Shown: positions 26,733 to 31,946 of the stretch, one piece after another | How positions within the stretch are numbered: the stretch's first letter is position 1 | How the letters are laid out: the number at the start of each line of letters is the position of its first letter | NCBI GenBank assembly: GCA_963844715.1 | Contig: CAWJPJ010000006.1 | Coordinates: forward strand, 1,120,001-1,184,000 | Direction of reading: 5' to 3' | Length of the DNA stretch: 64,000 nucleotides | DNA from: an uncultured Phycisphaerales bacterium | Lineage (GTDB): Bacteria; Planctomycetota; Phycisphaerae; Tepidisphaerales; Tepidisphaeraceae | Translations under genes and position numbers: made by a program | The notes under the pieces: generated by a model | Told to the model about the DNA's origin: nothing | The model's input: only the letters and a program-made list of their open reading frames with translations | Databases searched by the model: none

Positions 26733-29700
26733 TCACGCCGCGTTGGCGCCGCAGCATTTCTTGTACTTCTTCCCGCTTCCGCAGGGGCATAGATCGTTGC
26801 GTCCGACCTTGGGGGCATCGCGCACGATCGGCTTCACGGCGCCGGCTCCCTGGGTGCGATCGGAGGCTTCCTGCATTTCTCCTTTGGCTCCCACCGCGCC
26901 GACCGGTCCGACGGCCGCGGCGGTGGCGGCGACATTTTCCTTGACGCCGTAACCTCCGGTTGATTCGTGCACGGCGGCGGTTTCCTTGTAGGCGCTGCGG
27001 GTTTCGGCAGCCCCGACCACGCGGGCGCGGAAGATCAGGTCGGTCACTTTGTCGCGCACGGAGGCCATCATTTCCTGGAAGAATCGATACCCTTCTTTTT
27101 TGTACTGAACGCGCGGGTCCTCTTCGGCGAACGCCATCAGGCCGATGCCGGCCTTGAGCATGTCCATCGCGTAGAGATGGTCTTTCCAGGTCTGGTCGAA
27201 GATCTGGATGAGGACGAACTGTTCCAGATCCGTGAGTTCGCCGCGGATGAACTGGCGGCCGCGATTCAGGACGATTTCCCGAACCTGCTCGGGCGTGCCC
27301 GGGACGGCGAGCACCGGGCCGTCGTTGTCGTCGGGATTGAGGCGGATCAGAAAATCCTTATCGGTGAGTTTCAGCCCGAACCGTTCGTTGACGGCGCGGC
27401 GCAGCGATTCCTTTTCCGGATTTTGCGCGATCAGGTCGTCGACCGTCTTTTCGAGTTTCCCGCCGGTGAGGAATTCTCGCTGGGACGCGATGAGTTCCTC
27501 GCGCGAGCTTGGGAATTCCGACAGTTCGCACGTGGTCGAGGGACATCTGCACGCCGAATTTCTTCATGGCCCAGTCACGGATGTACTCGGCGATGTAGGG
27601 ATTATCCGCCGACGCCTCGACCCCGCCGAAGGCGAGCGTCAGGGCGTGATCCACGGGGTACTCGATTTCGCGCTGCGAATAGGCGGCCCGCGCCTTGGTC
27701 TCGATGAACGCCGCGATATCCTCGGAATTCTTGGGCGTGCGGCTTTTCACGTCGAGCATGAAGTCCTCGGCCGAAATCTTCAGCCCGAATTTCTCGTTGG
27801 CCCAGTTCGCCAGTTCGCGTTCGGCGTAGAGCGGCTCGAGGTATTTGAGCAAACCCGCGCAGCTGCGCTGCTCGATCTGCTCGACCGCAGCGAGCCGAAG
27901 CTTCTCCTCCAGTTCCCGCACATTGAGCTGCCGAACCTGGTTCTGAGATAGATGGACGTGAAAACGGCTCATCGCCCAGCTTTGCAGGCCCTTGGTATCC
28001 CACTGCTTGGTGTCCTCGGCGTCCTCTCCGGTGAACTCCGCGAGGGTCGCGGTCAGATTGGTTTCGGCCTCGGAGCGGGCCTGCGATTTGATGTACGACT
28101 CGAGTTCGTCGATCGACCTGCGGCCGATGAAGTCGGACGAATCGAGCGAGGTGGTGTCGAAATTCACGCGCGACCACTCGGCGATCGTCGCCGCCACGAA
28201 ATCCTTGGTGATATATTTCTCGACGGCGTCGTCGATCGACTCGCCGATCATGTCCCAGATGACCTGGTCCACGGCGGTCCCGACCAGCACGCGCTGCCGC
28301 ATTCCGTAGAACGTGTTCCGCTGATGATTGATCACCTCGTCGTATTCCAGGAGATTCTTGCGCGCCAGGTAGTTTCGCTCCTCGACCTTTTTCTGGGCGC
28401 GCAGGATTCCCTTTGAGATTCGCTTGTCCTCGATGGCCATCCCCTCTCCCATGCCAAGCCAGCCGAGGACCTTGATCGTCCACTCGCCGGCGAACATCTT
28501 CATCAGGTCGTCCTGAAGGCTGACGTAGAACCGCGACGACCCCGGGTCTCCCTGGCGTCCGCCGCGGCCGCGAAGCTGGTTGTCGATTCGCCGCGCCGTA
28601 TGCCGTTCCGTGCCGATGACGTGGAGGCCACCGGCCTTTTTCGTCTCGTCGATGAGTTTGATGTCCGTGCCGCGGCCGGCCATGTTCGTCGCGATCGTCA
28701 CGTTTCCGACGATCTGCCCGTGGGCGTTCTTATGACTGCTGTCCCGCCACGCCCACGATCTGCGCCTCGCGCTCGTGGTGCTTGGCGTTGAGGACCTCGT
28801 GCTCGATCCCGTACTTCCGCTTCAGCATGGTCGAGAGCATTTCGCTGTTTTCGACGCTGGTCGTGCCCACCAGGATCGGGCGGCCCTTCTCGTGCTCGGC
28901 CTTGATCTCCTCGATGATGGCTTCCCATTTCTCCTTTGCGGTTCGGTAAACGCGATCCTCGTGATCCGCGCGGGCGACCGGGCGGTTGGTCGGGATGGTC
29001 ACCACGTCCAGACTGTAAATCTTGCCGAATTCCTCGGCCTCGGTCTGCGCCGTTCCGGTCATCCCGGAAAGGGACTTGTACATCTTGAAGAAATTCTGGA
29101 GCGTGACGGTCGCCAGGGTTTGCGTTTCTTCCTTGATCGGCACGTGCTTCCTTGGCCTCGGTCGCCTGGTGCAGGCCGTCCGACCATTGCCGGCCGACCA
29201 TTTTCCGCCCCGTATATTCGTCGACGATGACGACTTCCATCTCCCCCTTCTGGCCGCGCTCGACGACGTAATCCTTGTCCCGCTCGTAAACCACATGGGC
29301 TTGCATGGACTGTTCCATCAGATGCGGCCATTCCATGTTGTTCCCGACGATAGAAGCTGCCGACACCGGCCGCTTCCTGCGCCGCGGCGATTCCTTCGTG
29401 AGTGAGATGCACGCTTTTGCGGTCCAACTCAACTTCGTAGTATTGGGTCAATCCGTCCTGGCGCTTCTGGGCATCCTCGAGCTGGCGTTCCGCCTCGGCG
29501 TGGCGTTTCCGGGCCGCGGCGGCATCGGCGCTGTTCTTCGCGTTCGATTCATCCCCTTCCGCCGCCTTGATCGAGCGCACTGCGCCGCCTGGACGATTTC
29601 CTCCGCCGCGTTCCAGGGCTTGTTCAGCTCAATCACCTTCCGCGCCACGGCGTCGGCGGCTCGATATTTCCCCGCATCGTCGTGCGCGGCACCGCTGATG

Positions 29701-30579
29701 ATCAGCGGCGTGCGCGCCTCGTCGATCAGGATCGAGTCCACTTCGTCCACGACGACGAATTCCAGCGGCCCCTGCACCTGAAGCGCGGCCCGTTCCTTCA
29801 TGTTGTCGCGCAGATAATCGAAGCCGAATTCCGCGTTGGTTCCGTAGGTCACATCCGAACCATACGCCGCTCGGCGCGCATCGCCGCCCGGGGCCATTTC
29901 GGTCTGGATGAATCCGACGGTTAGTCCCAGATTCTCAAAGGCCGGCCGAACCCACATCGCGTCGCGCCGGACCAGGTAATCGTTCACCGTGACCACGTGG
30001 CAATGATTCCCCTCCAGCACGCGCATGAAACATGCCAGCGGAGCGACGAAGGTTTTGCCCTCGCCCGTGGCCATTTCGGCGATCTTGCCTTCGTATAGAA
30101 CCAGACCCCCGATGAACTGCACGTCAAAGCAGCGGCACCGGAACGGCGGGCGGCTTTCGGGATAAATCTTGCGAACCGCATCGTAAATCTTCAGCGGAAT
30201 CGGCACCGTGCCGCCAGGATTGCCCCGTCCCGATCAGGGTCTGCTGCACCTGGTCGTAAACCTCCAGCATCTTGTCGTCGAACTGATCGGGATCGAAATG
30301 ATTCTCCGGATCGAAGATGGCCCGGATGCCGATGTTGCGGTCCATCGACTCGCGAATGATCCCGAACACCTCCGGCAGGACTTCGCTGCGCCGGATTTTT
30401 CCGCTGGTGAGCTGCTGGCGAATCTCCGCGGTGCGCTCGCGCAACTGCTGATCCGTCTTGACGCGAACTTGCGGTTCGATCGCGTTGATCTGATCCACGA
30501 CGCGGTGATACCGCTTCAAAAGCCGTTCATTGCGGCTGCCGAAAACTTTGGTCAGCGTCTTGCTAAAATTAATTGCCAT
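26733..30579 (-). CDS. secA: Preprotein translocase ATPase SecA (about 1280 codons; several frameshifts)
   Basis: [81 protein letters not shown]-terminal [18 protein letters not shown]. Confidence 0.97.
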
Positions 30580-30653
30580 GACACCCCTCCCTATCGGGGG
30601 ATTAAGAAAAGGGACGAATCGATTAAACTAGAAACTGAAAAGCGCCGGCCGAA

Positions 30654-30946
30654 TCAGCACAGCGGGGGAGGGAGGCGGAAATCAAAGGGGGAGAGATGAA
30701 TCGCCGAGGCGATTCGAACCGTCCTGGCGACGGAGACGGGGATGGCGGCGGGCTTGAGGTTGGTCACTCGCGGCTGGTACATCCGCAGGGGCGGCATGGC
30801 CCGCCGGAGCGACACTTCCAGGCGCTGAAAATCCGCCCCGCGACTTCCATTGCCGGCCGCTCGACGGGGGCGGCCATGCTAACGCGATCGGCGCATAAGG
30901 CCGTCGCCAAAAGAGTTACCGCGATGAAGTGCCTGGAACGTCGCAT
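30654..30946 (-). CDS. Secreted uORF upstream of secA ending in RLPPP (putative SecM-like arrest peptide; one homopolymer frameshift)
   Basis: Signal peptide MRRSRHFIAVTLLATALCADRVSMA; restoring one T at 30828-30831 gives a 97-aa ORF ending HLSPFDFRLPPPLC*, 74 nt before the secA ATG. Confidence 0.65.
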
Positions 30947-31074
30947 AGCTTCAGTGCCGCTAGCAATATCCCCCCATCCGCCGGAAGCGTCAAGTCCGGC
31001 CATTGCGTTAGAATTTTAGGCCTATTATCCTGCGGTTTCCGCCGCTTTTGGGCGCGTTGCGTCTGGAGGTTGTT

Positions 31075-31946
31075 ATGTTTCATCGTCCATCAAAGCTGGG
31101 CTGGATGAGATTCGCCGCCTTCTCGATGGCCTGCCTGGCCGCCGCGGCCGTCGTAAAAGCCGACGATTGGCAACCCTGGTCCGGCGCCGGAGCGCCGGTA
31201 GCGGGATCCTCAACGCCCGATAACCGAGGCACCTCGCAGCCCCTCGTTTACGATGTCGCTCCGGCTTTTGCCCGAGCCGCGACTGCCCAGGCCCAGTTCG
31301 ACCTTGCCTGGACGAACATGACCGCCGCCCAGATTCGCGCTCGCGCTCAGTTTGAGCATTCGCCCGAATACGTCGCCGCCCAGCGCGAATTGGCTGATGC
31401 GCAATCCGCGTACGACGGCGCCTGCGAGGCCGTCATCGCGGACCTCCTCAAAGACCCGGCGTATCACAAGCTCATCGAAAAGCGCACGCAGGTTCAAATC
31501 GCTTTGGATCAGCACCCGGCTGACAGCGCCGACGTGCAGGCCATCGCGCATTTGAAAATGGAATACAGCGCCGCCGCCAGCCGCATGGAAGCGGATGCGC
31601 TGGCCGGCGATTCACAAGTTCAAAACGCGAAAACCCGGCTCCTTGCCGGTCAGCAAGTCGTCGATAGCATGATCCAGCGATTCGAGGACGCCTTCGCCAA
31701 CCAGCCGGCCGTGGCATTCGCTTGGAGGAATTATCAGAACGCGATCGTCAACCAGGCCGGGCGCAAGGATATCTCCAGGGCGCACTGATCACGCGCGACG
31801 ACGTGAATAACGTGAACTATCTGCGTTACTCCCCCGCGCCTAACAACGTTTACTGCGGCGCGCCGTACTACCCGACCTGGTCGTATGGGTGCGGAATCAA
31901 TCCTTACTTTTTTGGGTACTATGGGATTGTGGTGAGACGATTCTAA
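31075..31946 (+). CDS. Secreted coiled-coil protein with Tyr/Gly-rich C-terminus (frameshifted)
   Basis: Signal peptide (MRFAAFSMACLAAAAVVKA), Ala/Gln-rich helices, tail in 31722..31946. Confidence 0.65.

Follow-up and report, generated by a model that had tools for sequence, protein, structure and literature searches.

Known secretion monitors such as SecM, VemP and MifM combine an export signal with a C-terminal, proline-containing arrest motif upstream of a translocation gene, and unmasking of the Shine-Dalgarno (SD) sequence is their demonstrated mechanism according to the introduction of PMC10987492 (Fujiwara, Tsuji, Yoshida, Takada and Chiba, 2024, Nat Commun 15:2711). This publication, of which main-text sections and 12 readable supplements are considered here, is the only one found in a literature search that describes the family of our locus. 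It defines the class uA_LPPP as secA uORFs with an N-terminal signal or transmembrane segment and, among the last 15 residues, LPPP or XPPP, and lists 50 sequences, of which 48 belong to the Phycisphaerales, one to UBA1161 and one to WQYP01. A 115-aa homolog tested there showed full arrest on B. subtilis ribosomes (fAP 1 in PURE), which was lowered by the exchanges L110A, P111A and P111/113A, and a toeprint placed Pro112 of L110PPP in the P site. In B. subtilis cells the TAI was 22.4, in E. coli cells 1.59; on E. coli ribosomes the stall was weak (fAP 0.51), for which the authors suggest a possible artefact of missing EF-P. The downstream induction assay covers another peptide only, and in the main-text sections covered neither mRNA structure nor secA induction is given for uA_LPPP.

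The window analyzed here is a stretch of 64,000 nucleotides from a genome of the Tepidisphaeraceae. Its minus strand carries a uORF directly upstream of a gene that matches the SecA families. By its sequence, the uORF is a uA_LPPP member in every trait of the published definition, and the family to which it belongs is uA_LPPP itself and not a new one. In the preliminary description the peptide had been treated as undescribed, which can no longer be upheld: the family was named in 2024, and the lone UBA1161 member of the published list, as far as the source was available, is letter for letter the uORF of our family locus L154 with the same 92-nt spacer. For this member SignalP-6 assigns residues 1-24 (PMC10987492). 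With a published family and one homolog shown to stall, the locus itself changes little. The 2024 list has one member from Tepidisphaeraceae, to which about 130 are added here, together with a longer conserved motif and a conserved promoter-like site. We regard it as quite probable that the uORF, which a single-base error of the assembly has probably interrupted, is a uA_LPPP peptide that likely serves as a secretion monitor, in which self-stalling at LPPP would raise secA translation when export is slow. The features of the locus are the following, L002 being the intact same-genus orthologue from genome G001:

30965..30993, minus strand: sigma70-like promoter, TTGACG, 17 nt, GATATT (9/12 matches; 0.4 expected in shuffles)
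30654..30946, minus strand: uORF of the uA_LPPP family, 97 aa across the frameshift (intact orthologues and profile)
30872..30946, minus strand: predicted Sec signal peptide, residues 1-25 (hydropathy and pattern; putative cleavage site)
30826..30831, minus strand: frame break with one base missing, likely an assembly error (orthologue alignments and A1 profile)
30657..30692, minus strand: C-terminal arrest motif SPFxFR-LPPP-xx-stop (family column counts and published homolog)
30666..30672, minus strand: CCCTCCC, anti-SD in the Leu-Pro-Pro codons, predicted SD partner (minimum-energy and centroid folds)
30634..30664, minus strand: hairpin resembling a terminator that spans the stop codon of the uORF, with T-rich sequence behind it (-10.7 kcal/mol)
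30583..30602, minus strand: local hairpin, alternative SD sequestration (-9.6 kcal/mol; -8.4 in L002)
30585..30591, minus strand: secA Shine-Dalgarno GGGAGGG (16S tail of the genome: GAUCACCUCCUUU)
26733..30579, minus strand: secA, fragmented into several frames here, unbroken in the majority of relatives (SecA family matches)

The first frame of the uORF runs from the ATG at 30946 to an unshifted stop at 30764. The second frame contains the C-terminal end HLSPFDFRLPPPLC followed by the TGA at 30656-30654, which lies 74 nt ahead of the secA ATG (30579). From ATG to stop the uORF spans 98 codons minus one base. The 97-aa ORF that was proposed to result from one added base is supported by the intact orthologues L002 and L003 (G002), both of the same genus and both 97 aa long. 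The N-terminal piece is identical to residues 1-40 of L002 in 27 of 40 positions (E 3e-17), the C-terminal piece to residues 41-96 in 32 of 56 (E 1e-18). A profile built from 84 intact relatives (A1) matched the genome with its positions 1-41 in one frame and 41-98 in another, the junction being at 30827-30830. Three intact members were searched against Pfam and NCBIfam and matched no family above the cut-off; one sub-threshold match to TrbC was obtained (E 0.07). As to a second copy of the uORF in this genome, a single weak match interrupted by stops was obtained (E 0.03).

For the comparison across the family, 141 family genomes were searched with the secA N-terminus and 138 of them matched. 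Left out were the three genomes without a secA match and three with weak or partial matches only; used were 136 loci from 135 genomes, the window's own locus counted in. The unpublished genome G004 (L004) enters the counts as one row, and no claim is based on L004 alone. An ORF with [L/M/Q]PPP no more than 15 residues from its stop was found upstream of secA in 131 of the 136 loci. In 126 of these 131 the motif was accompanied by an N-terminal hydrophobic stretch 40-130 residues upstream; five loci have the motif only, namely that of the window, two further copies that are likewise broken and two truncated at the 5' end. The expectation that relatives would retain a signal-like N-terminus together with LPPP close to the stop was thus borne out in 126/136 loci. 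The remaining five comprise L055, whose intact N-terminal half runs into an N gap, L095 with a displaced stop, L135 with IPPP, as well as L131 and L156, which reach contig ends. The median uORF length was 99 aa within a narrow range (117 family loci with a called start), and the spacers between uORF and secA measured 54-311 nt. From profile A1 the family consensus reads M-x-x-x-R-x-x-LAVxxVATALCADR...RL...RR...SPFQFRLPPPxx. The closest named secA relatives bear the title Tepidisphaeraceae. UBA1161 is presumably the order that was later renamed Tepidisphaerales. Both named Phycisphaerales secA loci (2/2) carried a motif ORF, in other families of the class an LPPP ORF was present in 3/16 genomes and an LSPP-ending variant in 1/16, and the motif was absent at 8/8 named non-planctomycete secA loci.

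The window's uORF ends in RLPPPLC-stop, which places the motif within the last 15 residues, and its LPPP codons (30674-30663) are CTC CCT CCC CCG. Among the 131 motif loci, for which PPP was the selection rule, the preceding columns are conserved as well: P at -5 in 95, F at -4 in 85, F at -2 in 88, R at -1 in 103 and L in 123. LPPP is separated from the stop by two residues in 99/131 loci and by one to five residues in 130/131. The C-terminal LPPP put forward in the preliminary description is thus conserved, as the 131/136 loci show, and stalling is on record for the published homolog (PMC10987492). From this one homolog on B. subtilis ribosomes we transfer the register of the arrest: the ribosome would likely stall with the second Pro of LPPP, i.e., codon 30668-30666, in the predicted P site. 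The homolog assayed there does not belong to the FR-LPPP type. The uORF shares with published uA_LPPP the position upstream of secA in Phycisphaerae, the N-terminal signal, LPPP in the last 15 residues and a length of about 100 aa. It differs in that the subtype ALCADR...SPFxFR-LPPP, which dominates the Tepidisphaeraceae loci, was not found in the 12 readable supplements: neither RLPPP nor ALCADR gave a match there, and since 48 of the entries belong to the Phycisphaerales, the FR-LPPP subtype appears to be new to the published list. The conserved motif positions are ready mutants for the question of whether and how uA_LPPP arrest induces secA.

The uORF can be compared with two further groups of arrest peptides. 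Like the RAPP-type peptides ApdA and ApdP and the RQH family, it would stall while Pro occupies the P and A sites, and through the Arg that precedes the motif in 103/131 loci R-L-P-P recalls R-x-P-P. However, in the register published for uA_LPPP, as far as the source was available, it is Leu and not Arg which stands two residues before the P site. Membership in RAPP/RQH, with the motif (R/Q/H)-(A/G/D)-(P/G/S)-(P/G), was rejected, Leu following the Arg. According to the parts of PMC12992588 covered, which contain no mention of LPPP or RLPP, the second residue in ApdA/ApdP can only be a small one such as Gly, Ser, Asp or Pro. The architecture of export signal, C-terminal Pro-containing motif and downstream translocation gene is common to SecM, VemP, MifM and our uORF; compared with SecM the motif is a different one, the uORF has 97 aa and the SD unmasking is a predicted one. 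The SecM motif FxxxxWIxxxxGIRAGP is absent from the uORF, and the Pfam and NCBIfam searches gave no match that would indicate homology to SecM.

Upstream of the uORF, the promoter-like site ends 18 nt ahead of the ATG. Of 110 family loci, 84 have TTGAC in the 80 nt before the uORF start codon; the corresponding counts for three control windows are 6, 11 and 10. The conserved site likely drives a transcript on which the uORF and secA are joined. The signal peptide claimed for this secA uORF was recovered by hydropathy and pattern, in agreement with the N-terminal hydrophobic stretch of 126/136 loci. It comprises a basic n-region, a hydrophobic h-region, the conserved ALCADR and an AxA-like site; the respective columns of A1 are A16 75/84, L17 66/84, C18 59/84, A19 75/84, D20 68/84 and R21 64/84. 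Export via Tat is unlikely, the twin Arg being poorly kept (R 27/84 and 38/84), and a lipoprotein signal is unlikely as well, T-A-L before the conserved Cys being a misfit to the lipobox.

The spacer between signal and motif has about 69 aa in the window, above the more than 30 aa that define uA_LPPP. With about 69 residues between it and the stall, the signal peptide would have emerged from the exit tunnel, so that pulling by the Sec machinery could release the arrest as in SecM and VemP. The distance from the end of the hydrophobic core to the P site has a median of 78 and a minimum of 72 (117 loci). The sensing of export and the induction of secA are attributed to the uORF by analogy with SecM, VemP and MifM. 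Within the spacer a segment RL..x.RR is conserved (window 30820-30800, uORF residues 42-49; R42 70/84, L43 74/84). It could form a helix that tunes the release of the arrest, analogous to the spacer elements of SecM and VemP mentioned in the sections of PMC10987492 covered.

The last step of the proposed mechanism is the access of ribosomes to secA. The 16S tail of this genome carries the usual CCUCCU, and among 132 family loci, most of which have short SDs with 3-5 matches, only one has a stronger SD than the window. On recheck of the coordinates CCCTCCC (30672-30666) within the LPPP codons indeed proved to be the exact complement of GGGAGGG (30591-30585). A ribosome stalled at LPPP would cover CCCTCCC and thereby weaken the structure over the secA SD, with a predicted gain of 0.06 to 3.8 kcal/mol. 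With regard to the fold of the region, the SD:LPPP helix is present in both the minimum-energy and the centroid fold, but the z-score of the region is just -0.8 and the local hairpin at 30602-30583 competes. In the model for this genome the SD remains in this hairpin when the ribosome footprint on the LPPP codons is blocked. When 75 nt of upstream sequence were included in the fold, the ribosome binding site (RBS) was easiest to open for a ribosome whose P site lay on motif codons 2-3, which is the published stall register; the cost fell from 17.9 to 14.1 kcal/mol here and from 23.1 to 16.5 kcal/mol in L002. The modelled gain in the window depends on the context (0.06, 1.9 and 3.8 kcal/mol), because the local hairpin re-pairs the SD.

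Across the family the picture is less uniform. An exact match of at least 7 nt between LPPP codons and SD zone occurs in 5 of 132 loci, with about one expected by permutation, which makes this genome one of the strongest cases and not a typical one; in L002 the exact complement even extends over 10 nt. Folding of 123 loci (those of the 132 with spacers up to 200 nt) paired at least three RBS bases with motif codons in 18 loci, with a median gain of 0.25 kcal/mol. Exchanging the cognate 5' part for a swapped one made no difference to unmasking in the 68 of 76 genera with spacers up to 160 nt (Wilcoxon p 0.90; the cognate value was the higher one in 28), a setting in which the gain of the window is 0.06 kcal/mol. 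One anti-SD hairpin conserved throughout the family was rejected on account of these 18/123 loci and the swap test. The partner of the SD in the RNA appears to vary across the family, so that unmasking would not proceed through one conserved hairpin. The anti-SD unmasking suggested in the preliminary description thus holds as a predicted pairing in the window and in L002, but not in the same-genus L003, for which the model gave no gain in RBS opening, and not as a rule for the family. As a part of the mechanism it is plausible here and in G001, whereas the models hint only faintly at SD unmasking as a family trait. Six loci (L098, L118, L123, L125, L129 and L151, five of them from one genus) have an intact LPPP uORF and no recognizable SD before secA, and SD unmasking can accordingly not be the link there.

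A modest sign that Pro codons are chosen for RNA pairing comes from binding energies and codon use. The cognate RBS bound the motif window with -7.55 kcal/mol, compared with -7.06 for permuted ones (132 loci, p 0.0008, uncorrected for kinship). With one locus per genus z was -2.3 to -2.9, and downstream decoy windows gave z of similar size and opposite sign (+2 to +3.4). Cognate binding exceeded that of synonymous recodings in 89/132 loci, and the window's own codons were unexceptional in this respect, 4 of 60 recodings being equally good. Some complementarity to the SD comes free, since Pro codons are C-rich by the code. CCU is used at P1 and P2 of the motif in 43 and 35 of 131 loci. In secA of these loci it makes up 53 of 1089 Pro codons, and outside the motif the uORFs use it for 53 of 731; weighted by genus the motif counts are 21/76 at P1 and 19/76 at P2. 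In PPP runs of this one genome CCU accounts for 29 and 34 of 252. The enrichment could also reflect a decoding effect at the stall site. It is conceivable, if doubtful, that in Tepidisphaeraceae the 12 CCU-rich bases of LPPP are in addition a tuned anti-SD of secA, the stall site being the RNA switch, and that the conserved Arg links LPPP to RAPP chemistry.

The same arrest peptide might instead control secA by transcription attenuation, if the stalled ribosome hides the 5' half of a terminator stem or else a pyrimidine-rich site at which Rho loads. The hairpin at 30634..30664, with 9 bp, starts in the last Pro codon and is followed by T-rich sequence, and L002 has one with another stem sequence (-13.1 kcal/mol); the motif and the next 20 nt are pyrimidine-rich across the family, and this genome encodes rho. 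Yet such hairpins are not enriched, with 10 of 76 genera compared with 9.75 in shuffled spacers (-6 kcal/mol), and no terminator-like hairpin was found in L003. Without an excess over the shuffles a family-wide terminator was rejected, and we keep attenuation as a minor and rather unlikely alternative to SD unmasking by the stalled ribosome.

A further reading takes LPPP as a generic, EF-P-sensitive polyproline pause; the product would then be a small secreted or membrane peptide of an ordinary kind, without regulatory influence on secA. This would agree with the published homolog, which barely stalls E. coli ribosomes in vivo in the sections covered, and with a modelled unmasking that is no better than in the swapped controls; the conserved RL..RR in the middle of the protein could likewise indicate a function of the product. 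The fixed place upstream of secA in 131/136 loci, the narrow length and the position of the motif 1-5 residues before the stop argue against it, as does the published arrest of B. subtilis ribosomes, which is Leu-dependent and strong in vitro and also strong in vivo. We consider a generic pause improbable.

With respect to the frame break, all coordinates of the preliminary description proved correct, including the T-run at 30831-30828 that had been said to lack one T. According to orthologues and profile one base is indeed missing at 30826-30831, but it need not be a T: the orthologue has IMKRL at the break, and Q and K both fit. Four public soil runs, with no RNA data set listed among them, matched parts of 29800-31600 and their contigs leave 30715-30836 uncovered, so that the case for an assembly error is drawn from the orthologues. 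A genuine frameshift, which would make the uORF of this strain a pseudogene, would be compatible with the uncovered break site and is nevertheless very improbable, as the same assembly breaks secA by six single-base extra positions relative to G001 in the first 1.9 kb and splits both rho copies by frameshifts, a contig assembled from one of the public runs, 97% alike, is without the extra base of secA at 30211, and both halves of the uORF retain the family pattern with the fewest changes at second codon positions. Judged by its sequence, the uORF is a real gene that is most likely intact in the organism. G001, with its intact gene and the 10-nt complement, is a better test subject than the error-rich assembly of the window.

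Several observations were made beside the main subject. The two frameshift-split rho-like genes of this genome are located at G000:C7:483775-485009 and C7:748832-749736. A second SecA_DEAD gene (G000:C7:368961) is without such a uORF and directly follows an ORF that looks, by eye, like an HlyD-type adaptor. Within the window a divergent ORF of 246 aa (31048-31788, plus strand) has a signal-like N-terminus and no match in Pfam or NCBIfam. The product of efp is the factor that relieves polyproline stalling, and this genome encodes efp. In four genomes of the class, L162, L164, L169 and L172 (G029, G038, G031 and G033), which have no LPPP uORF, secA is immediately preceded by a gene that is presumably efp-like, judged by its motifs. 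Upstream of secA in L027 (G028) a signal-peptide ORF ends in ALHAALSPPIA-stop, possibly a degenerate variant of LPPP. In L170 (G027) and L171 (G036), which belong to one other family of the class, the ORF upstream of secA ends in RLGGLYGP-stop or RRGGRIGP-stop and not in LPPP; it has two hydrophobic-looking segments and may be an arrest peptide with a Gly-Pro-stop end, which recalls the NSP-stop and NAP-stop classes.
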